Program-made: the position numbers and the translations under genes
Shown: piece by piece, positions 1-29,600 of the stretch
Layout of the letters: the number at the start of each line of letters is the position of its first letter
How positions within the stretch are numbered: the first letter of the stretch is position 1
The notes under the pieces: generated by a model
Databases searched by the model: none
What the model was told of the DNA's origin: nothing
The model's input: the letters and a program-made list of their open reading frames with translations, nothing else
Virus record (IMG/VR): IMGVR_UViG_3300017909_004705
DNA length: 64,000 nt
Source: a virus
Taxonomy: Duplodnaviria > Caudoviricetes
Reading direction: 5' to 3' (one strand)

Positions 1-908
1 TTTTGGTGTGCGGCTATGCAACCTAGACTTGATCCTGCATCACCTGGGTTTGGAATTATCCAGATGTTGTCAAATAGTCCTAGGTTTGCAAGTACCTTGT
101 TGGCCGCACAGTTAAGTGCTACTCCGCCGGCATACACCAAATTACGTGATCCATACCTACTTGCCCTGTGCCATAGATCTGCAAGGCACTCTTCCGTCAC
201 TGCCTGTATACTGGCCGCAAGGTCCATTGGATCTGCTTCCGGATGCCACTCGCTTAACCCCCTGTGTAGATTTTGCTTCAACTTAAATGGAGACTGATAC
301 ACAAAGTCATTGTATATGTCTTCTTTGTATTTTGGCTCACCGTATGCGGCCATGCCCATTAAAATGTATTCTTCTTCCGCAGGCTTCAGTCCACAACGAT
401 GTGTAAATGCACTGTAAAGTATTCCTATGCTGTGCGGATACTTGATTGTTTCCTTCCTTTCAATCCATATTTTTTCCGCAGTGGATATTGACACTGTATC
501 CCATTCACCAATTGCGTCGACTGTTAGTATTGTTGCCTCTCTGAAAGGCGATGTAAAATATCCTGCCGCGGCGTGAGAGTCATGATGTTTCACGTACTCG
601 TCGATCTTGATGTTGAAATTGTCTAGATGCCATTGTGGCAATTCTGTATGACTTAATGCATCTGACCATTGTCCTGCGTAAAGTTGCCGTGTTTTTTTCA
701 GCCAAGGCTTTTCATAATAAACAACTTTGTCGAAAGGACCATATGTCATTGCCTCATTTACTATTTGCCAATTAAGATAGTGATCGTTTTTGACCTTTGA
801 ATAGCGTTCTGCGTGTGCGGCCCATAAAACCTCACCTATGCCAGAACTGTAATCTACCACTGACATGGCGGCATCATGATTCATACAATTAATTCCTAGT
901 ATCTTCAT
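1..908 (-). CDS. Carbamoyltransferase (CmcH/NodU/TobZ family), runs off the window edge
   Basis: Not in the ORF track. Manual translation from ATG at 908 gives MKILGINCMNHDAAMSVVD...AHAERYSKVKND...HHDSHAAAGYFTSPF...TVDAIGEWDT...YPHSIGILYSAFT...EEEYILMGMAAYG...GGVALNCAAN...PNPGDAGSSLG, the hallmark NodU motifs. Confidence 0.93.
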   Translation of the reverse strand, partial: MKILGINCMNHDAAMSVVDYSSGIGEVLWAAHAERYSKVKNDHYLNWQIVNEAMTYGPFDKVVYYEKPWLKKTRQLYAGQWSDALSHTELPQWHLDNFNIKIDEYVKHHDSHAAAGYFTSPFREATILTVDAIGEWDTVSISTAEKIWIERKETIKYPHSIGILYSAFTHRCGLKPAEEEYILMGMAAYGEPKYKEDIYNDFVYQSPFKLKQNLHRGLSEWHPEADPMDLAASIQAVTEECLADLWHRASRYGSRNLVYAGGVALNCAANKVLANLGLFDNIWIIPNPGDAGSSLGCIAAHQ

Positions 909-1053
909 CTTCCTCCTTGTGCCAACCCCTGTCCTCGATATTGTTGCCTTTGCATTTAGGACATGCCCAACCCTCTTCCGAGTCGTCCTGTATTAGATCC
1001 TGTGGTGCCCCACGCCACTGACAGCCATAGCAATACCAGTTCCACCAGGCCAT
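889..1053 (-). CDS. Small Zn-ribbon/rubredoxin-like protein (CxxC...CxxC)
   Basis: MAWWNWYCYGC...WACPKC. ATG at 1053 directly follows the trxB stop, and the 3' end overlaps the carbamoyltransferase start. Confidence 0.65.
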   Translation of the reverse strand: MAWWNWYCYGCQWRGAPQDLIQDDSEEGWACPKCKGNNIEDRGWHKEEDEDTRN

Positions 1054-1054
1054 C

Positions 1055-1996
1055 CTATTTTGTCTCTTGTCCTGCAAGATATTTCTCTGCTTCCAGGGCC
1101 GCCATGCAACCCATTCCGGCGGCTGTCACCGCCTGCCTATAAGTTTTATCTTTTACGTCACCAGCGGCATAAACTCCTTCTACGCTAGTAAGAGTTGAAT
1201 CAGGTTTTGTAATTATGTAATTCTCATTGTCCATCTCTACTTGGCCTTTGAATATGCCTGTGGCTGGATCATGCCCTATTGCAATGAATACTCCATCTAT
1301 TTTCTTTTCAGTGATAGATCCATCCACTGTGCTTTTAAGTTTCACACCAGTAACGTTATTTGGATTCTCATCTCCCACTATTTCTTCAATCTGGCTGTTC
1401 CAAATACATTCGATCTTTTTGTGTGCAAATAACCTGTCCTGCAAAATTTTTTCTGCCCTTAATTTGTCTCTCCTATGCACAAGATAGACTTTACTTGCCA
1501 TTCCTGTGAGGTAAAGTGCTTCTTCAACTGCACTGTTTCCACCGCCAACCACTATGACCTCCTTGTCCTTAAAAAAGAATCCATCACATGTTGCACAGGC
1601 AGAAACTCCGAATCCTGAAAATTTCTTTTCACTTTCTATTCCCAACCATCTTGCTTGGGCGCCTGTTGATATGATCACACTGTCGGCCGTGTATGTTTCT
1701 CCACTTTCCCCTACTGCGGTGAATGGTCTATTACTGAAATCAACTGATTTAATCATGTCTGTAATGATGTCTGTGCCAACACTTTTAGCCTGTTGCTCCA
1801 TCTGTTGCATCAACCACGGCCCTTGTATTACATCACCAAATCCAGGATAGTTTTCCACGTCAGTTGTTATTGTCAATTGTCCTCCTGGTTGCATACCCTG
1901 TACCAACGTTGGCTTCAGCATCGCCCTTGCTGTGTATATGGCCGCGGTATAACCAGCGGGACCTGATCCAATAATTAAAACTTTTGAATGTTTCAT
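1055..1996 (-). CDS. trxB: Thioredoxin-disulfide reductase
   Basis: GSGPAG FAD motif, GGQLTITTDVENYPG, CATCDG redox centre, GGGNSAVEEA, AAGDV...YRQAVTAAGMGC. Likely start is MKHSKV at 1996 (ATGA overlap with the upstream stop). Confidence 0.96.
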   Translation of the reverse strand: MKHSKVLIIGSGPAGYTAAIYTARAMLKPTLVQGMQPGGQLTITTDVENYPGFGDVIQGPWLMQQMEQQAKSVGTDIITDMIKSVDFSNRPFTAVGESGETYTADSVIISTGAQARWLGIESEKKFSGFGVSACATCDGFFFKDKEVIVVGGGNSAVEEALYLTGMASKVYLVHRRDKLRAEKILQDRLFAHKKIECIWNSQIEEIVGDENPNNVTGVKLKSTVDGSITEKKIDGVFIAIGHDPATGIFKGQVEMDNENYIITKPDSTLTSVEGVYAAGDVKDKTYRQAVTAAGMGCMAALEAEKYLAGQETK

Positions 1997-2670
1997 TTTA
2001 CTTTCAAGAATCCTTTCGCTTTTACTAAAGCAGTCTCCCAATCTTCCAATGTCATGTCATATTCAAAATTTTGCGAAGTTTCGTTTACCTGTAATTCTTT
2101 AGCACCATTTTTAGTATGGAAATTCCTTGCCATTTTAGTCAACGGTGAAAGTGTAACCAATCGATTTAGATGATTTGATTTTTTGATTCTCTTGTACACT
2201 TCATTTATTATTGCACGTCCTCCGCCTTTTTTCTTTGCCCAAACTGTGTAAGCCACTGCAATCGACCCTTGCACTCCTGCCCTGTTACTGGACCTGATTG
2301 CGGAATCATAACTAAATTTTTCTAGTTCTTCAACGGTCTTTGGTACCTCATCCGTAAAAGCAAAACAAATGATGGCAGAGATGTCACCTTCGTCATCTCG
2401 CAATCCTAGTATTTTTCTACCATATGTTTGTCTGAATACTAAATCTAGTTCAGGACGGACTGGATCTTCTGTGACGTCAATATATGGAAGTTCTACAAGT
2501 GTATACTTTGATTCTTTTATTTTTTGTTTTGTGTATGCTTCTAAACTTTTATAATTTTTATTTGTGTAACTTTGTAACTTTGAAAATTTTTCCAATAGTC
2601 CGGTGACCGAAGGATGCTCTTTCCATCGTTCCAAAACCTCTTTCAGTTTTTCTTTATTAAGTATTTCCAT
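1993..2670 (-). CDS. GNAT-fold protein resembling the malonyl-CoA decarboxylase catalytic domain
   Basis: IAVAYTVW...GGGRAII...LVTLSPL resembles the MCD/GNAT motifs AVFYSIS...FVTLSP. Confidence 0.5.
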   Translation of the reverse strand: MEILNKEKLKEVLERWKEHPSVTGLLEKFSKLQSYTNKNYKSLEAYTKQKIKESKYTLVELPYIDVTEDPVRPELDLVFRQTYGRKILGLRDDEGDISAIICFAFTDEVPKTVEELEKFSYDSAIRSSNRAGVQGSIAVAYTVWAKKKGGGRAIINEVYKRIKKSNHLNRLVTLSPLTKMARNFHTKNGAKELQVNETSQNFEYDMTLEDWETALVKAKGFLKVK

Positions 2671-2672
2671 TT

Positions 2673-2777
2673 TTATTTGTAAATGAATGGATCTTTCTTC
2701 TTAAGTTCTTTCACTCTTTTTCTATAGGCTATTTCTTGTTTGAATTTAAGCCAAAGATTTTTTATCCATTTAAACAT
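2673..2777 (-). CDS. 34-aa basic micro-protein ending KDPFIYK
   Basis: Manual translation gives MFKWIKNLWLKFKQEIAYRKRVKELKKKDPFIYK. It has a GGAG Shine-Dalgarno upstream and fills the gap between flanking genes exactly. Confidence 0.75.
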   Translation of the reverse strand: MFKWIKNLWLKFKQEIAYRKRVKELKKKDPFIYK

Positions 2778-3447
2778 GATTTGTCTCCTTTCTAAAAACA
2801 TATGTTGTTAATCCGCCGTTCCTCCAGTTCCATAATATTCCTGGATGACTGTCTACGAATTTATAATCCATAAACATCTTTTTTACATCTCTACTGTAAA
2901 AACTTAATTCGTAAGGATGTTGTTCCTGATCTATTTCTAGGGTTTGAGTAGCATAATCATTTGGCAATAACTTTTGCAACCTCTTGCCCCATGGATGATA
3001 AAGACCTATTATGAACATACCACCGTTGTGTAGCATGTTTTGTAACCTTGCTAAAGTCTGCATGTAATCAGGTATGTGATGCAACACGCCCTGGCATATG
3101 ATTGTATCGAAACCATCATGTGTTTCAAACCTTGTAAGATCTTCTTTTATGAATTTAAGATTAGGCCTGTTCAGTTCTTCTTTTATTTTCACTGCATAAT
3201 TTATACTATCTGCAAAATCTACTCCGGTAAAGTTTTTGGTAGGATAGGTTTGTGCAAGATAGTTCACCATGAAACCTGTGCCACAACCTGCGTCGAGGAC
3301 AGTACGGCTATGCATTATACTGTTTGATATGAAAGCAATATAACGATTTTGCCCTGCATAGGTCTTAACAGACTGAGCAGTGTAAGGACCTGGAAAAGGA
3401 TGTTTATTATAAAAACCTTTTACCTGATCGCTTTTATTTGTATTCAT
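2770..3447 (-). CDS. Class I SAM-dependent methyltransferase
   Basis: VLDAGCGTG motif I, GVD motif II, FDTIICQGVLHH; N-terminal FYNKHPFP. Confidence 0.9.
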   Translation of the reverse strand: MNTNKSDQVKGFYNKHPFPGPYTAQSVKTYAGQNRYIAFISNSIMHSRTVLDAGCGTGFMVNYLAQTYPTKNFTGVDFADSINYAVKIKEELNRPNLKFIKEDLTRFETHDGFDTIICQGVLHHIPDYMQTLARLQNMLHNGGMFIIGLYHPWGKRLQKLLPNDYATQTLEIDQEQHPYELSFYSRDVKKMFMDYKFVDSHPGILWNWRNGGLTTYVFRKETNHV

Positions 3448-3550
3448 AAGGATCCTTCATTTTCAATTCTTCTAGTCTTTTTTTCAATTTTCTTCTGTAT
3501 GCAATTTTCTGTATCATTTTGTCAAAGAGTTGTTTTATCCATGATATCAT
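3434..3550 (-). CDS. 38-aa basic micro-protein ending KDPYEYK (paralog of 2673-2777)
   Basis: Manual translation gives MISWIKQLFDKMIQKIAYRRKLKKRLEELKMKDPYEYK. ATGA overlap with the upstream stop and a GGAG Shine-Dalgarno. Confidence 0.75.
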   Translation of the reverse strand: MISWIKQLFDKMIQKIAYRRKLKKRLEELKMKDPYEYK

Positions 3551-4350
3551 AGTTTTTCTCCTGTTATTTTTTTAAACACTGGTAACATTAATTTTACAGC
3601 ATCATCGTGTGATTCGTCAAGTGGATGAGTTGTACCCCTTTCGTAGTCATTTAACAATGCCCACTGGTTAAAACCCATCATCCTTTCACCAAAACTAAAC
3701 CATTTAGTAATATCAATTTCATTGTATAAGGCATTCATAAATTTGTCCTGATCTTTGTGATGTTTCATCTCATTGTAAAACAAACTGTTATCTGCCAGTG
3801 TGAACATAAATGGTATTTTCTTTTTTTCCAAGATATTCTGTAACCAAATTATGCTCTTCCAACTTTGGTAGACTTCGTGGTATTCATTTGCCGCGTGTCT
3901 ATAAATTGCCTCGGCAAAAGGTCTGACCCCTGTTTCTGCCAACAGGGATGACCTACGTTTCCAAACTTCTTGTTGCCCCTCTGATCCTAAAAGTGCTTTA
4001 TGCCTTTCTTCGTTTGTCATTGTAGTGTCCCAAGGTGATATCGATACCCAACGTGTGTCCTCTAATACTTTGTGCCTTGGCATTGCCCAATCATACCTTG
4101 ATGTGAACGTCCACATAACAACCACCATATCTATATTATTATTCTGTGACACTGAATTAAACACCCTACGTGCTATGCCTGAATTGCCAGTGCCCGGCAC
4201 TGCTGAACAAATAAAGTTTCCTGTTGGTTGGCAGTGCTTGAATAGTCCATAGGCCCATGTCTGCTTGGAGTCAGTTTTACCATTGTTGTCGTCTGATAAC
4301 TCCGATCCGTATGTAAAACTACAACCCCCTGCTAAAAAATCTCTAATCAT
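3547..4350 (-). CDS. SGNH/GDSL-like hydrolase or acyltransferase
   Basis: N-terminal GCSFTYG, PGTGN (block II-like), VVMWTFTSR and C-terminal HP, typical of phage SGNH-like proteins. Confidence 0.65.
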   Translation of the reverse strand: MIRDFLAGGCSFTYGSELSDDNNGKTDSKQTWAYGLFKHCQPTGNFICSAVPGTGNSGIARRVFNSVSQNNNIDMVVVMWTFTSRYDWAMPRHKVLEDTRWVSISPWDTTMTNEERHKALLGSEGQQEVWKRRSSLLAETGVRPFAEAIYRHAANEYHEVYQSWKSIIWLQNILEKKKIPFMFTLADNSLFYNEMKHHKDQDKFMNALYNEIDITKWFSFGERMMGFNQWALLNDYERGTTHPLDESHDDAVKLMLPVFKKITGEKL

Positions 4351-5521
4351 AAATCTGTAAAACCTTATTTAAAAGTGGAAATACTTCTCCAAAATTTTCC
4401 TTTCTATACTTGTCTGTCCGCAATATTCTAGCCTTACGCTGTTCTCTCATCTCAGGAGAATCCCTGTCCACGGCATTCATGAATCTAATGCTAGGCTGAT
4501 AGTCTGTGAGCATGTGATATCTATCCGTGACTATATCTTTGATTTGTTTTGGTAGGGTCTGAACATTGAAGATATCAGGGTCGAAACAGGTGTTTACATA
4601 AAAAAACTTGGGCTGGTACTGTGCTACCCATAACGCAATCTTGGCCCAATTGAACACATTGAATATTGATACCGTTGAACATATCTGAAATTCCATGTTG
4701 GGTGTTTGCATCTCCTTAAACTTGACAAGGTTAGCACTAACTTGCCGCCAATTGGCTGGATGTCGCTGATACTCGAATGCTTCGCCTATGTCATCTATAC
4801 TAAATGCTATTTCCACGTGTTTGAAGTATGCCCAAAGATCAAATATTTCCTGTGGTGGCAAATGGGTGCCGTTTGTGTTGTAATGTATGTCAATATTTTT
4901 GGCATATCCTTTTTCAACACAGTGCATTAGAATTTTGAAATGATCCTTTATCATAAAAGGTTCACCGCCTGTAAATTCAAAGTGCTCCACATGTTTTAAA
5001 TCCTCTTGCAGTTCTTCAAAAAACTGTGGATTACGTTTTGGCCATCCGCCGTCTTTCAATTGCTGTCTTGCAACAGGATTATCAGAACCTATGGCCTTTT
5101 CATAGTCTATTTCTTCCTGTGCCCATTTGCTTGAACTCCACGATCCGCAGATCCTACACTTGAGGTTGCAAACGTTACCTAACTTAAAGTCTATAAACTT
5201 TAGCGTTGGCTCGCTGTTAGGTGTCCAATCTTTGAGGCTCTTGTTCATTTTGTATATTGAGTTCTGCCTTTTTGATGTTTTACCGGCATCCTCCTCAGCC
5301 CAGCAGTTTGCACAACCTAAAGGTCTCTCTCCTTTACGGAACTGTTCTCGTAATTTTTCCATGTATTCTGTTTTCTGTATAGTTCTTAAGCTCTGTTTGT
5401 ACACTTTGACCTCTGGTATGCTACCTTTGTAGAGACAGCAAGGAGACGCACCGCCGTTTACATCCACTTCCAAGTGTGTCCATGGTAACGGACAGACAGT
5501 TGATTTTATATACTTTTCCAC
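4343..5521 (-). CDS. Radical SAM protein with N-terminal SPASM/twitch-like domain (array copy 5)
   Basis: CPLPW...PCC...CANC followed by CNLKCRIC, GGEP, YNTNG, SIDD. Confidence 0.9.
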   Translation of the reverse strand: MEKYIKSTVCPLPWTHLEVDVNGGASPCCLYKGSIPEVKVYKQSLRTIQKTEYMEKLREQFRKGERPLGCANCWAEEDAGKTSKRQNSIYKMNKSLKDWTPNSEPTLKFIDFKLGNVCNLKCRICGSWSSSKWAQEEIDYEKAIGSDNPVARQQLKDGGWPKRNPQFFEELQEDLKHVEHFEFTGGEPFMIKDHFKILMHCVEKGYAKNIDIHYNTNGTHLPPQEIFDLWAYFKHVEIAFSIDDIGEAFEYQRHPANWRQVSANLVKFKEMQTPNMEFQICSTVSIFNVFNWAKIALWVAQYQPKFFYVNTCFDPDIFNVQTLPKQIKDIVTDRYHMLTDYQPSIRFMNAVDRDSPEMREQRKARILRTDKYRKENFGEVFPLLNKVLQIYD

Positions 5522-6852
5522 CAGTCTAATATCCTTTTATCTCTTTTCAAAATATGTGTGATATCTTGTTTTCTTATTTTGTCAAGATACAGTTGTCTTA
5601 ATTTTCCCTTTTTTGTTGGGGTAAATGTTTCTCTTGTCTTTAAATTTTTAATCACATCGATCAATGCCCTTTGTTTGTGCGTGGCCTTTGGCTCCATGTA
5701 TTCCAATGCTTCATCAATAATTGTGTGTAGTAAATCTTTTGGCAGTGACAATGGACTTAAAATTTCGTCATTGCTAAAAGTAAACATGACTTTTGTCAAA
5801 ACTTCAGTGTTCAACTCTTGACTTAGGTCAAACATATTTTGTAACTCTAATAGTCCAGGCATTGTGATAGTATAATCCAATCTCATTTGTCTAGAGTGAG
5901 TTGATACTGATAAACCTTCTTTGAAATTACGCAACCACTGTGTGTAATCTAGTCCGTCTCTGATATATTCTGCAACTTCGCCGGTGCCGTCCATAGACGC
6001 ACACACCTGCCAATCATTAAAATATTTCAAAATGTCAAAAAGATTGGAGTTTCTAAAAGAGGTTCTGCTTAAATTAGTATTGTATCTAACATACACTTCG
6101 TCAGCAAATCCAAGTTCTATTATCCTTTCCATTGCTTTCCAATGCATATCCCACATCAGTGGTTCCCCTCCACACCAATAAATTTCTCTTATTTGTTTTG
6201 TTTCGATTGAATCTACAAACTCTTGTACAATTTGCTTATCTTGAAACTTTTGTATCTGTTCTCGTAAAGGAGATGCCATCCAAGGCTGTGACTCTTTGCT
6301 CCAGGTTTTGTTCTTCCTGGATTCTGCTTCCCAACTTGAACTTAACATATCACCACACATCCTACATTTAAAATTGCATAAGTTATTGAACCTATAATCA
6401 AAACTTATAGTTGGCATAGTAGTAGCACCCGTATCATCGGTTTTTGCAAACGCTTCATCAATCCTGTCTGCGAACAATTTATTCCAATACGATCTATAAA
6501 CATCTGTGTTCAAAAGTTTATGATCACACACTTGACATTCGGGTAATTCTTCCCCTGCCATCATACGCAGTCTAACAGATCGCATGTGATCTGAATTCCA
6601 GTGTTCTTTTAGCGTAAGAGGTTTGTATTCTTTTGCATTATTTCCTGTATCTATGTACTGTTTGAAACTTTGGGCAGGCTCTCTTGATGCACAACACATA
6701 CGCCTCTCGGTCTGTGGTGACAAGTAAGTGTGCGTCCATGGAGCCATACAAAATGTCTTGTTTCCATCCTTTGGCTTGACACGTTTTGACACTTTAGCCA
6801 CCTCTCCGTTCCTTGGCCATCTCTCATCCGCTGTTGGAAATCTATCCGGCAT
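5506..6852 (-). CDS. Radical SAM protein with N-terminal SPASM/twitch-like domain (array copy 4)
   Basis: CMAPW...MCC...CQVC; CNFKCRMC; GGEP; YNTN. Confidence 0.9.
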   Translation of the reverse strand: MPDRFPTADERWPRNGEVAKVSKRVKPKDGNKTFCMAPWTHTYLSPQTERRMCCASREPAQSFKQYIDTGNNAKEYKPLTLKEHWNSDHMRSVRLRMMAGEELPECQVCDHKLLNTDVYRSYWNKLFADRIDEAFAKTDDTGATTMPTISFDYRFNNLCNFKCRMCGDMLSSSWEAESRKNKTWSKESQPWMASPLREQIQKFQDKQIVQEFVDSIETKQIREIYWCGGEPLMWDMHWKAMERIIELGFADEVYVRYNTNLSRTSFRNSNLFDILKYFNDWQVCASMDGTGEVAEYIRDGLDYTQWLRNFKEGLSVSTHSRQMRLDYTITMPGLLELQNMFDLSQELNTEVLTKVMFTFSNDEILSPLSLPKDLLHTIIDEALEYMEPKATHKQRALIDVIKNLKTRETFTPTKKGKLRQLYLDKIRKQDITHILKRDKRILDWWKSI

Positions 6853-8122
6853 ACAACTCCTTTAATTCAGGAAACACTTCTGTAATGTTTTCATTTCTTA
6901 TCACATCTAATTTTTGCATACTGTCTTTAAATTGTTGCAGGTCCTTTGAATTATCTCTCCTCATCATGTAGTCTAGTCCAGACTCGAAGCCTTTTGTTGC
7001 ACGAGTTAGATGATCTTTTGGACGTAACCACTCCAAGTGTTTTTCATATTTTTCTTTTACTTTCAGTTTGTATGAATCAGGCAACAGATCTATCCTTTGT
7101 GGATATGGATACTGCAAAAGATTAAAATTAAAATCTTGTGGTTTAAGTAGTCCTTGATCAACCCAATTCCTATGGAAGTCAGGTATATGTAAGGCATTGA
7201 TTAATCCTACTGTTGAACTGATGTAGAAATCAACTTGTGGACAAACTTCCAACATCCTTTTCCTGTTTGCAACAATGTCTTCCCATACTGTACCTTTACG
7301 CATTAATTCTCCACGTTTGCCTTCAGCATCTAGGCTGGCACCTATAGATACTGAATCAAATTTATTCCATAATTCTAAAACATCAATGTCCTTGTATTTT
7401 GTCCTTGTAAAATTAGTATTGTAAATTAGTCTCACATGATACATTTTTCTTTTATCTAATTCTTTCAATATCCTGTAGTGTTCTTCCATTATAATTGGCT
7501 CACCACCAGCAAAATAAAATTGTTCCACATGTTCAAACTGATCTAACATCTGTTCCCATATGTCATTGCTACTTCTTCCAACTTTCATTACCTTGGCGTG
7601 ATTAGGCGGAGCACCAGTGAGTTTTTTGTGATCTTCGTACCAATTCGAACTAAACCATGTGCCGCAACTTCTACATGCTAGGTTACAAAGGTTACTGAAC
7701 CTTATGTCCCAATATTTGATTACAAAATCTGCTTCACCTTCTGGTGTGGTGTTGTCCACCATGCCTATGTTATGCCCAAAATGTTTGTTAGAACTCAAAC
7801 GCAAACTGAAAAAACCAGATTTTTCCTGGTCATAACATTTTCCACAATGTTTGCTCGCCTTGTTTGACAGCATATTTTTTCTTATGCCTTTCATGGTATC
7901 ATTGTTGAACACTTCCGCCATGCTATTTTTATTAAGGTCACCAACAGGATATTTGTCCAAAGCAAAACAACACGGATACGCCCTGCCGTCCGGAAACGCA
8001 TGTATGTGCAACCAAGGCATCATGCAGAAAGTTTCACTGTCGATCAACAACTCCTTTTGGCGAGGAGTCATGTCCTTAATCTTTAACTTCTCGGGCTCCT
8101 TGGCCCCGTAATCATATGCCAC
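6842..8122 (-). CDS. Radical SAM protein with N-terminal SPASM/twitch-like domain (array copy 3)
   Basis: CMMPW...DGRAYPCC...CGKC; CNLACRSC; GGEP. Confidence 0.9.
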   Translation of the reverse strand: MAYDYGAKEPEKLKIKDMTPRQKELLIDSETFCMMPWLHIHAFPDGRAYPCCFALDKYPVGDLNKNSMAEVFNNDTMKGIRKNMLSNKASKHCGKCYDQEKSGFFSLRLSSNKHFGHNIGMVDNTTPEGEADFVIKYWDIRFSNLCNLACRSCGTWFSSNWYEDHKKLTGAPPNHAKVMKVGRSSNDIWEQMLDQFEHVEQFYFAGGEPIIMEEHYRILKELDKRKMYHVRLIYNTNFTRTKYKDIDVLELWNKFDSVSIGASLDAEGKRGELMRKGTVWEDIVANRKRMLEVCPQVDFYISSTVGLINALHIPDFHRNWVDQGLLKPQDFNFNLLQYPYPQRIDLLPDSYKLKVKEKYEKHLEWLRPKDHLTRATKGFESGLDYMMRRDNSKDLQQFKDSMQKLDVIRNENITEVFPELKELYAG

Positions 8123-9455
8123 GGTACCATTCTCCTATGATTGGGAAAGTCTTTTCAAAGTCCTTTCCTGTTCGTTTGTCGTATTGGCTATAAAACGCCT
8201 TGAAATCTTTTTGCAGTTTGCTTTGTTCGGCCGCTCCTGCGTGTGGTGTTTTTACAACATCAAGGTAGTCAATCAGCCTTTGTGTTTGATTGATTTCCAT
8301 GTGTTCTAAATACTTTTCGTTACTATTTAAAAACTTTACCAAGTCCAATTTAAATTTATTTCTTAGGTCGTCTGGTAGGACAAGCGGTGATTGGAAACTA
8401 GGAAACCTCAAAATATTAAGTGTGTAATTTATTGTCGGACCGTACACCTTACTTGCATTTTTAAACCATACAATTTTCTCTAAAAACTCCGGCAATGATT
8501 CAAGGCACAATGCATTTATTGTTGCCATGTTGTGTATTTCAGATGGCACCTTATCTACCATCATATGTAAAACTTGGCTATGCCAATCACCATAATTTAA
8601 TCCATCTCTGATGTATTCAGCCTGCCCAAACGTTGCTTCACAACTAGTGTATAAGTGAAAATTTTTAAAGTTTTTTAATTTTGTTTTAAATCTATCAATA
8701 ATACTTTGCTTCGCTCCTAAATTAGAATTGATTGCGATACGCATGTTTGGATTCATTTTATCACCTTGCGTTTCAATCCAATCTAACAATCGCCATAAGT
8801 TTGGTGACATCATTGGCTCACCACCCGTGATTCTAAGTTCATCTAAACTCTTGTGCAGGTCAGTTTCCCACCATTTGTAAAATGCTTCTACATAAGGATT
8901 GGTTTCATCTTTCTTGTATGGTTCTGCACTCTCATGACTGTGAGTATAATGGTTTCTTCCGTCTGACGTGAGTCCTGTGTATGGTCCTTGTTGTTTTATA
9001 TTGTTTGCCCATGTAGAACTAAATGCAGGATTGCAATAGGTACAGGCAAACTGACAGGTCCTGTCAAATGCTATTTCTAAAGTTTTAAGATTCCAATCAA
9101 TGTTATGGTCTGATCTGTGTGCCTCATCTAAGGCCGCATCTGAAAATATTCTTGATTTATAAACCCTATCACTGATTGCGTCCCTGCCTATGTCTTCTAT
9201 CTTCCAGCAGTATTCACAACCTGCAGGCCTTTCGCCACACTGCATTTGCCTACGTTGTTCTTTCTTTTGTTTTGTGTTGTGGATTGCACTTGGATTTTTC
9301 TTAATTTCTTCGAGATCAATCTTATGCGGCAATGGGTGGTGGCAACTTGTGGTCATTCCTGATCCCAACCATATTGTTGCATTGAACCATTTGGCTCCAC
9401 AGAAACTGGCACTCTTTGTATCTAGTATTTTTTTCTTGTATTCTAAATCGTTCAT
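8112..9455 (-). CDS. Radical SAM protein with N-terminal twitch-like domain (array copy 2)
   Basis: CGAKW...SCHHP...CEYC; CQFACTYC; GGEP. Start taken at MNDLEY (ATGA overlap). Confidence 0.9.
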   Translation of the reverse strand: MNDLEYKKKILDTKSASFCGAKWFNATIWLGSGMTTSCHHPLPHKIDLEEIKKNPSAIHNTKQKKEQRRQMQCGERPAGCEYCWKIEDIGRDAISDRVYKSRIFSDAALDEAHRSDHNIDWNLKTLEIAFDRTCQFACTYCNPAFSSTWANNIKQQGPYTGLTSDGRNHYTHSHESAEPYKKDETNPYVEAFYKWWETDLHKSLDELRITGGEPMMSPNLWRLLDWIETQGDKMNPNMRIAINSNLGAKQSIIDRFKTKLKNFKNFHLYTSCEATFGQAEYIRDGLNYGDWHSQVLHMMVDKVPSEIHNMATINALCLESLPEFLEKIVWFKNASKVYGPTINYTLNILRFPSFQSPLVLPDDLRNKFKLDLVKFLNSNEKYLEHMEINQTQRLIDYLDVVKTPHAGAAEQSKLQKDFKAFYSQYDKRTGKDFEKTFPIIGEWYRGI

Positions 9456-10822
9456 GCCGATCTGCACTCCTCCCAGAATTCTTCCATCTCAGGAAATGTG
9501 TTCAAGAACCTTGTCAAACGTCTGCGGTCGTGTTCATTAAAAAAAGCGTAAAAGTTTTTTTTATTTTGCGTACTTGCGTCCGCGTTTTCGCGCCAGTATG
9601 CGAGGTTCCTCTGCATCTTCTGGATCTCAAAGTCCTTGAATATGTGTAGGCCATTCTCTTCGCCGGCGTTGTTCTGCATGTATTCTATGTTGGCCTCGTG
9701 TATTGCCTGATAACTCTCTGGTAACATCGTTATCTGTTGCCAGGCAGGTTGTCTTAGAAGTGGCACGTCGAACCATACCCTCTGGTATGTCTTGCTGTAG
9801 GCCTTCCTAAGGTCTATTATCTTCTGCAACAGTTTGTCCATGCTGGTGATACTGAGGTTGTTGTAGGTGCATATGAAGGTTATGCTGTTACGACTAGGAA
9901 TCCTGTCCAAGAACTCCTCGACATTGTCCATCATGTAGTTGAAGTCCAAACCGTCACGTATGTATTCCGCACGTTTGCCCCATGCGTCCACACTGACAAA
10001 TTGCATCATGTGTTCAACTTTCTTCTGCATACATATCTCCTGGGCCATGTTGAAGTACTTCTCTTTTAGTTTCTTGTCTGGCGGACACATGTTGCTGGTA
10101 ACATTGAGGTGAAGGTCATCCTTGGGATGGTCTATGATGTACTGGAAGACCTTGTACGTGTTCTTGTCCATCATTGGCTCTCCTCCGGTCATGCGGAAGT
10201 GTTTAAGGTTGTTGTACAGCGTGGGCCACCATTTCCAGAACGCCGTCACGTAGGGATTTTCCTCCCTGTGTGGTATGGGCCTTCTACTGCCCTGGAAGTG
10301 CTCTGGAGCGTTGTGGGGTGGAGATGTTGGATATTGGCCATACCTTTCGATCTCCTTGCCCCACGTTGTTGAGAACTGTGGAGAACAATAACTGCACTTG
10401 AAGTTACAAGCGTTGTTGAAGTTAACCTCCACGTACCTCGGTGTCCAACTTGTCGTCATTGGATTCTGTCTAATCTGCTCGAAGTCCTGCATGGCCCATG
10501 GCTCACCGGAACGGTAGTGCCTGTCTGACATCTCTCCCGTGTCCTCCATCTTCCAGCAGTACGAACATCCATCGGGACGTTCGCCTCGTAGCATCTTGAA
10601 TCTTTGGTCCAGTTTTTCAACTGTGTTGTGCAGTGCCGCTGGATTCTTCTCCAGTTGCCTTGCGTCTATTTTGTGCAATGGTGGGTGGTAGCACGAATTG
10701 GTCATCCCTGTGGGCAGGTGCAGTGAGGTCTGATTCCACTTCGCCAGGCACATCGTGGGAGACACTGTGTTCAATTTCTCCCTGGCCTTAAGTGCGTCTG
10801 CTTTGTAATCACTTGTACTCAC
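9452..10822 (-). CDS. Radical SAM protein with N-terminal twitch-like domain (array copy 1)
   Basis: CLAKW...SCYHP...CSYC; CNFKCSYC; GGEP. Probable GTG start at 10822 behind GGAG (the ORF track extends to 10912). Confidence 0.88.
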   Translation of the reverse strand: MSTSDYKADALKAREKLNTVSPTMCLAKWNQTSLHLPTGMTNSCYHPPLHKIDARQLEKNPAALHNTVEKLDQRFKMLRGERPDGCSYCWKMEDTGEMSDRHYRSGEPWAMQDFEQIRQNPMTTSWTPRYVEVNFNNACNFKCSYCSPQFSTTWGKEIERYGQYPTSPPHNAPEHFQGSRRPIPHREENPYVTAFWKWWPTLYNNLKHFRMTGGEPMMDKNTYKVFQYIIDHPKDDLHLNVTSNMCPPDKKLKEKYFNMAQEICMQKKVEHMMQFVSVDAWGKRAEYIRDGLDFNYMMDNVEEFLDRIPSRNSITFICTYNNLSITSMDKLLQKIIDLRKAYSKTYQRVWFDVPLLRQPAWQQITMLPESYQAIHEANIEYMQNNAGEENGLHIFKDFEIQKMQRNLAYWRENADASTQNKKNFYAFFNEHDRRRLTRFLNTFPEMEEFWEECRSA

Positions 10823-11708
10823 GGTCTTGCACTCCTGTGTTTTTGTGTGGTGGATAGATGTATTTGATGAACCTGCTCTGGTACTCGTCCAGTTCGGCCA
10901 CGGGCAGGTCAATCCTCTGTCTTATGCTTTCTCCATACAGTCTTAGATCCTCGTCGATGTTATCTGGTTTCACTGAATTCTCATATAGGTCGATCATCTT
11001 GTCGAGATCCCTAACCTGTATCCATTCGTTGGAGTCCACTGTGGTGCTGTAGCAACCCATCCTTGCCCCCAGCATTGCATACTTGCCATTGTCCACATCG
11101 GCTCCCACTGTCATCCATGTGCTGAGTATCCTCAAGTTAGGACCCCATATCTTTTTCATAAATTCGTCTGGTCGGATGTGTTCACCCTGGTTGAGACTCA
11201 TCTTGACTCCTTCCCTATATCCTGCTATCCAGGCCTGGAAAGGTTCACTGTTGATCACACTCGTTGAATAACAGTTGTGCAAGTTTTCATGCTTCACTGT
11301 CCAGCAAAAATCTATCTCCGCTTTTTTGTCTTTTGCATTTTCATGTGTGTGCATGTTAAGGCAAGTTTCTTTGTCCCAGCCAACCAATCCGCCATTTCCA
11401 TACACCAGTCCATTGATTATGTTCTTTGCCCGCCACCTGTGTACTGCTTTCCTGTCTGTCTTTTCGAAGTCCAGTGTCTGTAAAAGGAATCGTTCGTCGA
11501 TGATGTTGTCACCATCAACACTTATGAAGAAATCGGTCTCTGAAATTTCTGCCGCGGCCTTGTGTGCAGAATCAAAACCTTTTACACCGTCAACACGTTT
11601 TGCCCATGGAACCTTGTTTTTTAGGTCAGCCCAATTTTCTTCTTTGTTGGGTTCCATGTAACTGATGTAAACAAAATCTAGGTCTGTTACTCGGATTTTA
11701 TCTGCCAT
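10809..11708 (-). CDS. GT-A fold glycosyltransferase (GT2-like)
   Basis: FVYISYMEP, GVKGFDSAHKAAA, FISVDGDN (DxD), YGNGG. Confidence 0.7.
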   Translation of the reverse strand: MADKIRVTDLDFVYISYMEPNKEENWADLKNKVPWAKRVDGVKGFDSAHKAAAEISETDFFISVDGDNIIDERFLLQTLDFEKTDRKAVHRWRAKNIINGLVYGNGGLVGWDKETCLNMHTHENAKDKKAEIDFCWTVKHENLHNCYSTSVINSEPFQAWIAGYREGVKMSLNQGEHIRPDEFMKKIWGPNLRILSTWMTVGADVDNGKYAMLGARMGCYSTTVDSNEWIQVRDLDKMIDLYENSVKPDNIDEDLRLYGESIRQRIDLPVAELDEYQSRFIKYIYPPHKNTGVQDREYK

Positions 11709-23694: not shown

Positions 23695-26600
23695 TTATTC
23701 AGGTGCGTTTGTGGGCTCATCCGCTATGAATTTAGCCTGTTGAGTGGTCGACGCCTGTAATCCTCTACCATCTGCTGGATTACCATCTTTGGCTGTATAC
23801 CAGACCTGTCCTTTCTTGTGTAATATTTTGATCTGTGTGCCTGAAGCCGGTGCTGTGCTTAGAGTCACTGCTGTCGAACTTCCGTCCACAGAATAGTTTA
23901 TAGTTGATCCATCCTCGCTAGTGAGCAACAATCGTTGGCCACCAATGAATATGTCTAACTCACTAGCGGAGGCTGGTGCTTGTGATAGTGCAAACACTGT
24001 TGTACTGCCATCACCTGTGAAGGTGTTGGTGTAAACTGTGTCCGCGTAAGGGATGGTTTGAGTACCAGACGCATCTACCACTTCCGTGCCTGATCCATGC
24101 TCCTTAATTCCTGTTCCAAGTGTTCCACGTTTAAGTTGTCCCAACGTGTTACTTGATTTTGTGAAATATTCTATTCTCTCTTTGTCAATAAAGATAACCC
24201 CCGGTATTATTGTTTGAACTGAAGATCCGTCTCTACTGATAATGCTTTTTGGATCTGGTAACAATGATCCGTCTTTGACAGTGATTGTTTTGATACCTGG
24301 TGTCATGTCTTGTGTTAATGTCGTAGTTGCAGTTTTAGAGATTCGTTTGTAGAAAGTCCTGTTCAACATGTCTTTGAATATCCTGAATCCTGTGGCATTT
24401 ACTGCTGAGTCAACAGCAAAGTACAACACATCCAGCCTGTCAGAGGACGTGATAGTTCTTCCGTTGATGGTTAAAGTGTTACCGCTAACTGTGTAGTCAC
24501 TACCCTGTAATAATTGTTCACCGTTGAGCCAAACAAAAGTGTAACTGGCATTAAGTGTATCAAATCGTAGTTTGAAAACTCCACTGCTTCTACCCTCTAG
24601 AACTTCTCGTCTCTGTTTCATGCCTAAAGCATTGTTGAAAGTAGTGACTGATAAAGTGTCACTTGCACTTAATGAATATGGAGATGTGATTGCACTTGGC
24701 ACAAGAACCAAATCAGCATCAGCACCACCGTCAACGAAATACTGATGGTCGACTAGTGTAGATATACAAATAACGTCAGTCGATGATGGCACATTCGCTG
24801 TGTTAAAATTAACGTTTTGATTGCCTATGTCCACAGTGTAATGAGTGTTTAAGATTTTTTGAACTCCATTGACAAAAACTTCTACTTGACTTGCTGATGA
24901 AATGGTCTTGGCCGGATCAACAGTAGAATCATCTTCAAGTCCTGCTAACACGCTATAAGTGTAAGTGCTTCCGTCACCTAGATAGTAAGTGTTATCCGGT
25001 CCTCGTAACAGCCTACCATTTAGTTCCACAGTTGTCAGTCCAGATAAAGGACCTATTGCTCCAGGTGGATACGTTAATGCATATCTATTGGTTGATCCAT
25101 CATAAGTTATTGACTCATTACGAACACTGGCAAAACTTCTAGTTGATGTTGTGGACTTGTTGAATCCTGCTATCTGCACAAAGGCATCTGCTTCTGGTGG
25201 AGTGTTGAATGTTACAGTGATTGTGTTTGCACTAATCGACGTTGCGTATGCTGTAGTTGGCACTCCGTCTATTGTCACATAGATATCAGATGATGTTGAA
25301 TCAAGATTGAACTCACCCCTGGTTGACGTCAAGAACGCTGTCGTGCTTCCGTCACCAGTGAATGTGTTAAGCACTCTGTAGTTTTCTCCAGATATGGCAA
25401 AGACCTTAGTTGATATTTCACTATGGTTTGCAGGTGCTGTGTCAAATGTAATTGTTTTGTTAGCAACGTCGATGGTGTAGTCTGATATTGTTGAGTCCAA
25501 AGCACTGCCTTTTTGAATCACTCCATCTACTGCTACTGTCACTGATCCCAGTGATCCTGGGAAATCTCCTATGCTGAACACAGTTGTAGTTCCGTCTCCT
25601 CTGTAGTTTCTCTCAGATATAAATGGAACTCCAGACTCTGGCGAGGTATAGACTTTTATGTCCACTGTGTCGAACATCTGTCCTGGCACAGTTTCTTCTG
25701 GTGCGTAACTCGTATCAGGAGAAACAAACTGATCGCCCTCTAAGACAATGTCACTTGGTGCATGACCAAGTGCCGATGTGAAAAGTCCGCCCTTCACGAT
25801 AGAATCGATTGTCCTATCATCTGTCGGAGTCAACACACCGTCATCATCGAAAGGAATAAATTCAACTAATGCGTTCGCTTCTGGAGTTTCACTGATGCCA
25901 AATGTGACCGTTGATCCATCACCTCTGATGACATCGGGAAGTTTTTTCCTTGTACTGTCGTCCTGTGTGATGTAAACTTGAAAAACTTCTGTTGTGGCCG
26001 GCGCAGTGTCAAATGTGTAATCGTTATTGATGCCATCTGCTCTAAATGCCTTGATTCTAGATCCGCCAAATGTGTCGAATGGGAAATCATACCAGCCCGA
26101 TTTGTCCCATCCTGCTTCTTGTGAAAACAATAATCCTGTGACCATTGTTCCGCCATAGTCAACACCTGACATTACCTGATCTAACTCGTTGCCTGGCATG
26201 CCTGCTCCTGGTGTGTAAAAACCTTTTGTTCTGTCAGCGGCCGTAAGTCCAGTTTCATCGCCGTACACCTTGTACACACTGCCGACGTTGTCGTCGAAGT
26301 CTGTTGATGACGTGAATGCATTGGTCACTTTGTAAAGTTGGTTGTTGTATCTCAGTAGGTCATTGTAAGCATAGTTTGTGTTGGACGCCCAGTCTACAAC
26401 TCTAGATGTGCTGGAAACCCTGTCAAATTTTATTGTGGTGTCAAAATCTCTTACCAGGTCGTTGGCGAGATTAGCATATGCTCTTGCTGTGTCTGACGGA
26501 GTTGAACCGTCATCGGCACCACCCGTGATAACCACCATTGGAGTGGCTGTGTAATTAGATCCTTTGCCTGTTAGTGTAATTTTTGTTACCTTACCGTCTT

Positions 26601-29600
26601 GTATTGTTGCTGTTGCCGTGGCCGCAGTAATGTCTGGAGTCTCATACATTTTGTAGGCACCCGATCTAGTGCTGGTAGGAGTGATAGTTGTACTTGGACC
26701 ATAAAACAGTCCAGATAAGCCGTCGAAGCCGTAGGTGTTTGTGGTTCCCGAACCTCCGTTTTGACTGTCCCATATTTTTGCTTGAGTCTCACTACTGAAC
26801 AAAGGATAAAAGTAACCGTAACTGCCTGATGTTGAACCTCTATTACTAGTTGCTTGGATCTGGAATGGCCCTGTTGATGCCACCGTACCACCTACTATGT
26901 TTACTGTAGGTGTCTTGGTGTATCCGGATCCACCATCAAAAACTGTTATTGATGAAACATATTTCTTGTGGTAATCGTTCCACATCTGCCATGGGTATTC
27001 AGTCAACTTCGCAGTGTCTAGACTTACATTCAACGGTCTTATTTTTCCTGTACTTGCGTCATAGAAAGTTGGATTGTCAAAGTCTGTGTATATACCGTCT
27101 TGCGTTTCTGTCTTATCATAACCAAGTCTATACTCTCGCAGTTTAGTATGGAAAGGTTTGACTTCGTTTATGTAATCTTCTATCCAATCATCCGTTCCAG
27201 TTGTGTAGGTTTTTCTCTGGTCCAGTTCACGCACACTGTTTTTTGCGTTGATAAATGAAGTTTTAAACATCCAGTCTACGTAAGTTTGCTCTGCGAGAAC
27301 TTTTCTCAATCCTGTAAAGAACAAAGTGTTGTATTCGATAGCAAGGTTGTTGATAAACAAGTCATCTCTTAAGGCAGTGAGAATATTTCTTGTTTCAATG
27401 CTTGGCTGTTGGTCAAAGAAGTTGTCGTCGAAATTGTCTGCTCCGGCAAATCCTGTTGCGTCCTGCGAATAGTCATAAAGTTTAGTGCTGAGCCTTATTG
27501 TGCCATTTTCTGTACCAACATTTTTGAAACCTGTGGCCGTTTTCATGAACAATTTCCAACCACCTGTGTCCGCGTTTGTTACCTTTACGTGTTTTCCGAT
27601 AGCCAGGTCAAGTGTGTCAAGCTCATACTGGAAGGTGACTTGTTTGTCAATCTTCGTGTTCTCGTCGTGGGTCATTGTGCCGTCTGTGTCGTACCAATCT
27701 GTGTAACTCCAGTACGCACTAGTGTTATAGGTCTGTAGTTTTGTTCTCATGAATTCTGTGCCGTCCCATGTGTATATTGCCCAATAGTTGTTGGCCGTTT
27801 CGTCTGCCTTGACCAAATATCTCACACTGCCTGACAAGTCTGCCGTGTTAATATAGGTCAACTCAGCGTATGTGTCAATCGTTGCGTCCCATTCACCACT
27901 CTGTTGCGTTGGCTCAGGCTCCTTCTTGTCTAGGTTGCTTAAATTTATCGTTCCGCTCAACTGATTTTTCTTCAGCACGGTGTTTGCGTAATCTATGATT
28001 TCTTTCAAAGCGGCGTATCTGTCAACGTACCAACTCTGCCTAGGCCTTACATTGTTACCATATCTCTCATTCACAGGTGAGTTAGGGTCAGGCACTATGT
28101 CGCCTGTGCTGTTTGAGCCAATCAAAGAGTCCCACCAACGTGTTTCAACTTGGTGTCCAGGTTTGAAATCGGCATCTCCCTCTCTGGCCAACTTCCAGAC
28201 GCTGTGTGCATCACCATCAAAGTCATTTGTCCTTATGTCAACGTTTAGCACGATGTCATCCCCGACAAGGTCATTCACGTTGTAAATCTGTAATTTGTTG
28301 GTGTCCGTTACCGCGTAGTACTTGATGTCAAATGCACTTGGGTTCGCGATAAGATTCGCCACGTATGCCACTGTGTTGATCCTGTGTCCTGCTCGGTGCC
28401 TATGCCTGTCTCCGCCTGAACGTGGTGGCAATGTTGTTTTGCCTTTGACCCAATAGTAATAGACATTGACAAATCTATCTGCCCTTGAATCATATATTTG
28501 TTTTACCGTGTACTGTTCATCGTTGCCATACAGAGCGGTGCCGGTCACTACTTGATTAGTCTGTCGCCTTAAGTTCCATTCACTTGGCAACAGCCTTGAC
28601 TCTGTCCATTCATACACATCGATACTTGAGCCTGGGAAGGTTCTTCCCCAGTTGTTGTTCTTGTATTCCTGTCCGCCTTGCTCGTACCATAGCCATTTTA
28701 CAGTTGAAAGATCCCACCATACCTCACCTAAGTGATCCTCTGCCCATGGTGTTTTGCTGTTTGCATTATCCCCAACATTGTAGGTTGCTGGATCCCATGC
28801 TGTTTTGATGTCAATCTCTCTGTCTGCCAGTCCCAAAATTCTTCCTTTGACAGGATCATAAAGATCATAATAGTCTCTTATCTGTTTGCTTTTGTTGTTG
28901 AATTCGAACACCTGTCCCAACTTGCTGACGTCTATGAAAGCAGTTTCTGACGCTATGTTCTTCCATGCGAAACTGCCACTGGTTGTCAAATCATATCTTA
29001 TGACTGTTCCGTCATTTTCTACTTTGGTGCTTCCGTCTGATGTCGTGTTCCCGTCGTCCTGTGGAGCACCTACCAACACTGTGTTGTCTATCATGCAAAC
29101 GCCACGCCCAAAGTCATCGTTCTCCGAAACGCTGTCTCCTTCAAGCATGTCATCTATTACAAATTTTGAATTGTACATGGTTGCCGTGAATGCACCACCC
29201 GAACCAATGTTTAGGTCCACCACGTCAGTGTCCTGCAAGTCGAAAGTTGTTTCACCGGAGTCAAATTTCATTTCTCTGTATGTCGCAAATCTTTCAGCAC
29301 CTATCACTATCCTGTTGCCCGACTGGTTGATGTCAAGGCTGTTACCGAACTTCATGTTGTTCTGTGTCTCTGGTGCCTTAATAGTCTGTTGAAGTGTGTA
29401 AGTGTTTGTTGATCCATCAGCGTTCCATTTGTAGTAGTACACTGCTCCACCATCTATCTGACTAGTGCTACCGTCATCTACTCCTGGTGCTCCTATTATC
29501 AGCGTGGTTCCGTCCTTGCTCATAGCCATCGACTCCCCAAACGCGGTGTTGAGAGAAGATCCATCACTTGACACTCCTGTCAATGTCTGTGCCAAAACAA

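Follow-up and report, generated by a model that had tools for sequence, protein, structure and literature searches.

The 64,000-nucleotide stretch of DNA analyzed here (IMG/VR record IMGVR_UViG_3300017909_004705; hereafter the window) comes from a marine T4-like phage and encodes a late sigma factor, a portal protein, and an SbcC-like nuclease, and its sequence is present in seawater metagenomes. Our subject is a pair of very short open reading frames (ORFs) on the minus strand, micro-ORF 1 (positions 2673-2777) and micro-ORF 2 (3434-3550), which lie on either side of a gene for a methyltransferase. A preliminary description of this DNA had proposed that the two are paralogs, and their products are indeed identical at 21 of 38 positions (55%; BLASTP E 8e-11); no third copy was found within the 64-kb window. 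Micro-ORF 1 is a canonical 34-residue member of the family described below (family hidden Markov model (HMM) E 3.5e-21; 91% identical to the relative P0001) and ends in KKKDPFIYK. Micro-ORF 2 is of a 38-residue subtype, which has four inserted residues and ends in KDPYEYK (E 3.1e-15). The Shine-Dalgarno sites that had been ascribed to both genes can be read directly from the DNA: each ATG is preceded, after a 6-nt spacer, by AGGAGA on the minus strand (2784-2789 for micro-ORF 1 and 3557-3562 for micro-ORF 2). Note that an ATG further upstream, at 2801, would lengthen micro-ORF 1 to 42 residues, whereas its relatives are almost all exactly 34 residues long; the peptide encoded across the Shine-Dalgarno region of micro-ORF 1 (D/E-RRQIM) is kept in relatives. 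The two genes had also been said to overlap their neighbors, and they do so at three junctions, namely between the start of micro-ORF 2 and the stop of the gene before it (ATGA, 3547-3550), between the end of micro-ORF 2 and the start of the methyltransferase gene (14 nt), and between the end of the methyltransferase gene and the start of micro-ORF 1 (8 nt), but not at the stop of micro-ORF 1, which is separated by 2 nt from the next ATG. Each predicted micro-protein consists of one long amphipathic helix rich in Lys and Arg, a helix-breaking Asp-Pro, and a short tail of the form [F/Y]-x-Y-(K). As read from the micro-ORF sequence, K and R make up 12 of the 34 residues, and no hydrophobic segment is of sufficient length to cross a membrane.

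The micro-ORFs are part of a long minus-strand operon. In order, five tandem radical S-adenosylmethionine (SAM) genes of the N-terminal-twitch type (10912-4343; NCBIfam NF033640, E 1e-87 to 1e-112) are followed by u267 (4350-3547), which encodes a 267-residue, DUF6071-related protein with a predicted SGNH fold, by micro-ORF 2, by a class I SAM-dependent methyltransferase gene (2770-3447; Pfam Methyltransf_31/25/11, E 3.5e-20), by micro-ORF 1, by u225 (1993-2670), which encodes a 225-residue protein of no recognized family, by a gene for a thioredoxin-reductase-like flavoprotein (1055-2041; Pfam Pyr_redox_2, E 2.8e-54), and by a gene for a TobZ/NodU-type O-carbamoyltransferase (3-908; Pfam Carbam_trans_N, E 2e-42). 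The last of these, of which the N-terminal 302 residues are present and the remainder is cut off by the edge of the window, lies 1.8 kb downstream of micro-ORF 1 on the same strand. Both micro-ORFs read as translationally coupled to their neighbors, micro-ORF 2 to u267 through the shared ATGA.

A word-indexed search with the 42-residue reading of micro-ORF 1 returned 64 clusters of near relatives from many marine samples, nearly all of them exactly 34 residues long. A family profile built from 58 members over 34 positions (profile A1) was then run against 1.84 billion representatives of a 50% clustering, 239 of which matched at E<=1e-3; almost all of these are between 33 and 76 residues in length and match at their very C-terminus. 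Moreover, among 38 distinct 34-codon DNA sequences the ratio of nonsynonymous to synonymous polymorphism (pN/pS) was 0.22 over the full length and fell to 0.095 in the C-terminal half; pS, at 0.88, had reached saturation. Because of the near relatives, the 239 matching representatives, and this purifying selection, the pattern that the two micro-ORFs share lies far beyond chance, and on comparative grounds we conclude that both encode real micro-proteins. (Note that contigs from one metatranscriptome run, which held a twentieth of the sampled words, cover positions 2762-3081 and 3443-3645 and leave out most of micro-ORF 1; carry-over of DNA is possible, and we do not regard these contigs as real evidence that the micro-ORFs are expressed.)

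The most striking feature of the family is its tail, in which one tyrosine is present in all 188 of the tails compared. Two residues before it, at position -2, the aromatic residue is F in 164 tails, Y in 22, and H in 2. Position -1 varies freely, as does the residue that follows the tyrosine (K in 151 tails, absent in 12, and another residue in the remainder). In 3 of the 188 relatives the protein ends in F-x-Y-K-N-F (FIYKNF or similar), a full FxYxxF motif. The N-terminal amphipathic helix is also conserved across the family. No entry in Pfam, NCBIfam, PHROG, or PDB and no named ESM-Atlas cluster covers the micro-proteins, and we found no mention of DPFIY or of DUF6071 in the literature searched. 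By these comparisons, the micro-ORFs belong to an uncatalogued and unnamed family of proteins of about 34 residues that end in an invariant tyrosine. (In some metagenomic proteins, P0065 and P0068, two copies of the family stand in tandem in a single reading frame, giving lengths of 75 and 59 residues, so that the micro-ORF has been duplicated in other ways elsewhere.)

We compared the gene neighborhoods of the family in two sets of viral loci. The first consists of 25 loci fetched by means of u267 and is biased by that selection. For the second, viral contigs were scanned for back-translated KDPFIYK and nothing else; it comprises 120 loci, of which 87 contain a profile match. Within the motif-selected set, a carbamoyltransferase gene follows on the same strand in 70 of the 76 loci with enough downstream DNA and is the very next gene in 29 of them. 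Homologs of the radical-SAM genes of the window were found in 6 of the 32 loci with at least 6 kb of upstream DNA, and u267 is the upstream neighbor in 20 of 85. The most common phage context has no radical-SAM gene and consists of a DnaG-type primase, the micro-ORF, the carbamoyltransferase, and a gene that resembles the replicative helicase. In many T4-like phages (for example in the loci L037 and L079) the micro-ORF and the carbamoyltransferase gene form a self-contained two-gene insert between the primase and the helicase-like gene.

A role for the micro-protein as an accessory of the primase was entertained and rejected. The relative P0010 weakly matches the Pfam model PriX (PF18689; E 1.6e-5, 25.5 bits) and 34-residue members do so at E 0.003-0.03, with no match for the ORFs of the window; we judge these matches to be compositional, since both are helices rich in K, E, and I. 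Moreover, the bacterial copies and those of the window have no primase nearby, and it is the carbamoyltransferase that always follows.

The same linkage data bear on the first of two suggestions made in the preliminary description, namely that the micro-ORFs encode precursors of peptides made by the ribosome and modified after translation (RiPPs), each with a helical leader and an aromatic-x-aromatic core of the kind cross-linked by SPASM radical-SAM enzymes, a role that would fall here to the five twitch/SPASM enzymes. The tail has the appropriate pattern, the five genes lie immediately upstream in the same operon, and in the phage group that contains u267 the array and the micro-ORF always occur together. 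The suggestion was not borne out, however: linkage favors the carbamoyltransferase over the radical-SAM genes, which are dispensable across the family, being rare in the motif-selected loci and missing both from the primase-helicase cassettes and from the majority of bacterial loci; the NF033640 enzymes are not known as peptide maturases; and in the window u267 intervenes, such that the peptide never adjoins a radical-SAM gene. Pfam scans of the neighboring genes in the window revealed no RiPP recognition element or PqqD-like domain, although no search aimed at either was made. We consider this explanation the least probable of those entertained here, and highly improbable in itself.

To look at linkage from the side of the enzyme, we fetched 79 bacterial and archaeal loci by carbamoyltransferase alone. 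An ORF that ends in DP[FYH]xY followed by 0-3 residues is present on the strand of the enzyme in 49 of the 79, and about 38 of these ORFs end between -3 and +32 nt before the start of the enzyme gene; several loci that scored negative for this pattern contain the variant tails PPMLYK, KDFIY, DDRFIY, and KEFIY. Tail ORFs stand beside 56 of 77 bacterial carbamoyltransferase homologs. On a FastTree phylogeny of 90 enzymes, 69 are accompanied by the tail; among the 21 that are not, 12 form a single Plantactinospora clade and several others come from truncated loci. Since the hosts that carry the tail include Streptomyces, Micromonospora, Nocardia, Amycolatopsis, Reyranella, Edaphobacter, Haliscomenobacter, and Verrucomicrobia, the family is not specific to phages. 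Sugar-pathway genes (DegT, epimerases, glycosyltransferases) dominate the neighborhoods. Judged by genomic context, then, the constant partner of the family is one subfamily of TobZ/NodU-type carbamoyltransferases. (Note that three loci on contigs binned into the bacterial MAGs TMED41, TMED46, and MED657 (L151, L152, and L153) encode carbamoyltransferases that are 80-95% identical to the phage enzyme and have phage-type neighbors; they are probably mis-binned phage contigs.)

A second recurrent neighbor is the SGNH-like gene. Although u267 has no match in Pfam, its AlphaFold2 (AF2) model (predicted local distance difference test (pLDDT) 78, predicted template modeling score (pTM) 0.80) has as its top Foldseek matches in the PDB the SGNH esterases TesA and acetyl-xylan esterases, with a probability of about 1 and E about 1e-3, and the residues that are invariant among its homologs, S11, G53, G55, N56, D245, and H248, correspond to SGNH blocks I, II/III, and V (Asp245-x-x-His248). 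The u267 HMM matches the same bacterial ORFs as the HMM of DUF6071; the direct hhalign comparison of the two is weak (probability 9.5%), and we base their kinship on the shared fold and on these common matches. In all 25 of the u267-selected loci a micro-ORF directly follows the u267 homolog, within a strongly syntenic module. In bacteria the corresponding tail is often not a separate protein: a basic stretch and a DP[FY]IY(P) tail form the end of proteins of 300-390 residues encoded beside the carbamoyltransferase, and these fused proteins are DUF6071 members (Pfam E 1e-31 to 4e-51) or weakly GDSL-like. Other bacterial loci, for example L170 and L175, resemble the phage in that a gene of the DUF6071 or GDSL-like type is followed by a free-standing micro-ORF and then by the carbamoyltransferase gene. 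Across the bacterial loci, 33 have both a tail and an SGNH-like gene, 20 a tail only, 2 an SGNH-like gene only, and 24 neither (Fisher p 2.5e-6); both of the SGNH-only loci carry variant tails. Together, the fold, the invariant residues, the shared HMM matches, and the natural fusions argue that u267 and micro-ORF 2 are a split form of the bacterial DUF6071-tail fusion. The micro-proteins, then, are free-standing versions of a tail which in many bacteria is fused to the C-terminus of DUF6071/SGNH-like enzymes. (An apparent fusion of u267 and the micro-ORF in P0010/L005 most likely reflects a sequencing frameshift, as that contig has many split genes, and was set aside.)

The fusions also speak to a reading in which the micro-ORF acts in cis, as a regulatory leader or arrest peptide whose conserved C-terminus would stall the ribosome at the stop codon and so control a coupled downstream gene. 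Such a role would suit a short ORF that lies immediately upstream of the next gene, often overlapping it, and in which conservation is strongest in the last residues before the stop. Nevertheless, in Streptomyces the same tail ends enzymes of about 300 residues that are encoded downstream of the carbamoyltransferase, the gene that follows the micro-ORF differs by locus (methyltransferase, u225, or carbamoyltransferase), the N-terminal helix is conserved as well, and the residue between the tyrosine and the stop codon is variable or absent. We therefore consider an arrest peptide very unlikely.

The presence of two micro-ORFs around the methyltransferase gene had been taken in the preliminary description as a sign that the latter was inserted by recombination at the micro-ORF. 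The evidence supports this in part. In DNA contigs of another sample, the sequence passes from position 2720/2726 to 3534, so that 807-813 nt are missing and each breakpoint falls within a micro-ORF, and 22 of the 25 u267-selected relatives have a single copy and no methyltransferase gene. However, the two copies in the window are about 65-70% identical in DNA and share no long exact repeat, so the duplication is not recent, and the upstream copy represents a distinct, conserved subtype that is invariably followed by the methyltransferase. This 38-residue subtype (P0152, P0187; tail DPY[D/E]YK) recurs in the marine contigs L230-L237, always in the layout u267, 38-residue ORF, methyltransferase (14-nt overlap), 34-residue ORF (which gene callers leave uncalled there), and u225; L028/L029 share this layout, but there the tail is a third one, DPYLYR, and the methyltransferase is only about 40% identical. 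The data thus partly support, at the level of sequence, gain or loss of the methyltransferase gene by recombination between micro-ORF copies. Comparison of the window with L230 gives a mosaic of identities (radical-SAM gene 88%, u267 56%, 38-residue ORF 66%, methyltransferase 88%, 34-residue ORF 88%, u225 84%), from which it follows that the 38-residue copy evolves with u267 and the 34-residue copy with the downstream genes. The same mosaic suggests that the SGNH gene and its micro-ORF (3434-4350) have been exchanged as a unit between related phages.

A methyltransferase, a carbamoyltransferase, and an SGNH-type enzyme beside a short peptide with an aromatic C-terminus recall the crocagin cluster, in which the short precursor CgnA, with a C-terminal Ile-Tyr-Trp core, is encoded together with CgnI (a carbamoyltransferase), CgnD (an SGNH-type esterase/protease), and CgnL (a methyltransferase; PMC10070186). 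By analogy, the micro-protein could be a RiPP-like substrate: the carbamoyltransferase would act on its [F/Y]-x-Y core, the SGNH-type hydrolase would release that core, and in phages with two copies the methyltransferase would methylate it, yielding a small modified peptide or alkaloid. That each micro-ORF of the window directly precedes a tailoring gene, and that the 38-residue subtype always precedes the methyltransferase, would suit such a scheme. It is harder to see why a precursor would be fused to the end of an SGNH-like enzyme, as the tail is in many bacteria, or why position -1 and the residue after the tyrosine would vary freely in a core. No CgnB- or CgnE-type peptide-binding protein and no CgnC-type dioxygenase was seen in the window, and the neighborhoods are, as noted above, those of sugar biosynthesis. 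A crocagin-like substrate is thus unlikely, if less so than an arrest peptide.

Some further features of the window concern the neighboring genes. In the phage group defined by u267, u225 usually stands directly after the canonical micro-ORF (20 of 25 loci). It has no match in Pfam or PHROG; its motif ...KKKGGGRAIINEV..., together with a faint match (E 0.086) to the MCD domain, which has a GNAT fold, gives a hint of an acyltransferase fold. The five radical-SAM genes (4343-10912, minus strand) are paralogs with an N-terminal twitch/SPASM-like domain, and glycosyltransferase-like and unknown genes lie further upstream in the operon. Among virion-protein-like genes there is an ORF of 4308 residues (23695-36621, minus strand), followed by one of 1162 residues (36621-40109, minus strand); the former probably encodes a giant structural or fiber protein. 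A collection of cultured phages contained no match to positions 1-6000 of the window by megablast, nor to the micro-ORFs and u267 by tblastn.

We think it likely, from linkage, fusion, and complex prediction together, that the micro-protein is a dedicated partner of the carbamoyltransferase, whatever the mode of binding. When the carbamoyltransferase and the micro-protein were submitted together to complex prediction, the pair scored 0.47 and the best control 0.00; at least 49% of contacts were common to the runs, and the partner had a pLDDT of at least 57. Among solved complexes, 58 of 80 came up to that mark, as did 2 of 110 mismatched pairs; only 7 of the 80 solved complexes did so at 0.60 or under, as did both of the passing mismatches. 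The prediction thus weakly supports the pairing.

As to what the partner does, we tentatively favor, with somewhat less than even confidence, the idea that it is a shuttle for carbamoyl groups. In DltX and PatA the tyrosine of a C-terminal FxYxxF motif takes an acyl group from a donor enzyme and passes it to the serine of an SGNH enzyme (PMC12148441). We propose a similar arm here because three recurring parts, a carbamoyl-activating enzyme, a tail with an invariant tyrosine, and an SGNH-fold enzyme, match the logic of DltB-DltX-DltD and of PatA-PatB. In particular, the helix of the micro-protein would dock on the carbamoyltransferase such that the tail tyrosine enters the active site, where the carbamoyl group that the enzyme makes from carbamoyl phosphate and ATP would be loaded onto it to give O-carbamoyl-tyrosine. 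The carbamoyl-tyrosine would then hand the group to the catalytic serine of u267, and u267 would place it on a final acceptor, probably a sugar-bearing molecule. The arm would be duplicated in this phage, with the 38-residue copy coupled to the SGNH gene and the 34-residue copy traveling with the genes that lead to the carbamoyltransferase. Note that we infer the docking, the covalent loading of the tyrosine, and the transfer by analogy.

The main rival, which is essentially the second suggestion of the preliminary description, has the micro-protein as a non-covalent accessory subunit or adaptor: the helix and a DPFIY peg would bind the carbamoyltransferase and stabilize it, activate it, localize it (for example at the membrane by way of the amphipathic helix), or tether it to the SGNH-like enzyme, with the tyrosine never loaded. 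This reading rests on the same linkage, fusions, and complex prediction as the shuttle, and it explains more simply the two-gene cassette without an adjacent SGNH gene. Kae1/TsaD-type domains, which these carbamoyltransferases contain, are generally regulated by small partner proteins. What tells against it is that a single tyrosine is absolutely invariant while its neighbors D, P, F, and I each vary somewhere, which is more like chemistry than packing, that the tail resembles FxY acyl-shuttle motifs, and that in bacteria the presence of the tail is tightly nested with that of SGNH-like genes. We regard a non-covalent subunit as possible but doubtful.

Several observations weigh against a carbamoyl-tyrosine shuttle. 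The largest group of phage loci has the micro-ORF and the carbamoyltransferase only, with no SGNH gene adjacent, and when u267/DUF6071 was sought elsewhere in five large phage records (38-67% complete) that have only this pair, two sub-threshold matches were found. The copies in the window do not have the xxF that closes the DltX motif; the complex prediction passed weakly; and we know of no precedent for an O-carbamoyl-tyrosine intermediate. Support for transcription is weak, consisting of one contig from an RNA library over 3443-3645. In addition, the shuttle leaves unexplained why a second, diverged copy always accompanies the methyltransferase.

Although usually overlooked by gene callers, the micro-ORFs rank with the best conserved genes of their module, which is found repeatedly in marine T4-like phages and also in members of Actinomycetota, Pseudomonadota, Bacteroidota, Verrucomicrobiota, and other phyla. 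The comparative data tie together three hitherto unexplained parts, namely the micro-protein, DUF6071, and the small proteins encoded next to SxtI-type carbamoyltransferases. If the shuttle is right, the mechanism of DltX and PatA would extend from acylation at the membrane to carbamoylation in solution, and an entry point would be at hand into some pathway for a phage glycan or small molecule; otherwise, the family would still be the obligate partner of a widespread clade of enzymes and would merit annotation. In its fullest form, which we hold a little more tentatively than the shuttle as such, the proposal is that a soluble 34-residue carrier would take carbamoyl groups from a TobZ-type carbamoyltransferase to the serine of a DUF6071/SGNH enzyme, as a cytoplasmic counterpart of DltX and PatA for a new group. 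It would assign roles to SxtK/DUF5989 and to DUF6071, and would act in phages as a mobile unit of two or three genes whose arm is duplicated when tailoring genes recombine in. By the same analogy, SxtK may itself be a DltX-like shuttle.

These ideas can be set beside known systems. In the HypF-HypE system the carbamoyltransferase, which has YrdC-like and Kae1-like domains, attaches a carbamoyl group to the C-terminal cysteine of a partner protein. The likeness is in the type of enzyme domain and in the delivery of a carbamoyl group to a flexible C-terminal residue of a protein partner; the differences are that the acceptor there is a cysteine on a 35-kDa protein, whose product becomes a cyanide ligand, whereas here it would be a tyrosine on a 4-kDa peptide.

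The tiny proteins of about 50 residues of the SxtK/DUF5989 family (PF19451) resemble the micro-proteins in standing beside NodU-family carbamoyltransferases, in their C-terminal PFIY, and in often having an SGNH/GDSL gene nearby. What the preliminary description said of such proteins proved correct, as three of the same bacterial genomes contain verified DUF5989 proteins that adjoin other carbamoyltransferases and end in ...APFIYTLF; some genomes carry both DUF5989 and micro-protein tails, beside different carbamoyltransferases. (In the loci concerned, L238-L240, the C-terminus of the DUF5989/SxtK proteins reads PFIYT[LI]F and fits FxYxxF exactly, and in L240 the gene is accompanied by a carbamoyltransferase gene and an SGNH-like gene.) DUF5989 differs in having a transmembrane helix and the full FxYxxF, whereas the ORFs of the window encode soluble, highly basic proteins; micro-ORF 1 has PFIY and micro-ORF 2 PYEY, and xxF is present in neither of them and in only the three relatives mentioned above. 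The PF19451 model gave no match at E<=10 to either micro-ORF or to four relatives, and hhalign of the family against DUF5989 aligned five residues, xPFIY, and no more (probability 10.7%). Hence the suggestion of an SxtK-like accessory to the carbamoyltransferase stands as regards linkage, in phages and bacteria alike, and the weak pass in complex prediction, but not as regards kinship, and on these comparisons the likeness to SxtK lies in the motif and the gene context and does not extend to membership of the family. The papers on saxitoxin describe SxtJ and SxtK as of unknown function and supposed to act with SxtI (PMC2679770).

DUF6071 (PF19547), in Streptomyces and other bacteria, ends in ...R-x-DP[FY]IYP and thus has the same basic stretch and tail beside the same carbamoyltransferase neighbor; in the window the tail is instead a separate 38-residue gene with its own start codon and Shine-Dalgarno site, and there is a second free copy.

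The closest parallel in logic is with DltX and PatA. There, FxYxxF sits on the micro-protein DltX or is fused to a membrane-bound O-acyltransferase (MBOAT), NgPatA ends in FIYANF, and the SGNH partners are DltD and PatB (PMC12148441). The differences are plain. The micro-proteins described here have no membrane helix; no MBOAT is encoded in the module of the window or in related loci, and the activating enzyme would be a soluble ATP-dependent carbamoyltransferase that transfers carbamoyl, not acetyl or D-alanyl. The tails of the window show F/Y-x-Y alone, the last three positions of the motif are missing in most members of the family, and there is no detectable sequence homology. The likenesses are of arrangement. 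In both cases an aromatic-x-Tyr stands at the extreme C-terminus of a micro-protein or of a fused tail, and detached and fused forms both occur. In both cases it is encoded with an enzyme that activates the group and with an SGNH-fold enzyme, here u267 with its conserved Ser, Gly/Asn, and Asp-x-x-His, and the tail and the SGNH-like gene occur together in bacteria. Moreover, the FIYANF of NgPatA stands beside the FIYK of micro-ORF 1, and beside the F-x-Y-K-N-F in which three of its relatives end.

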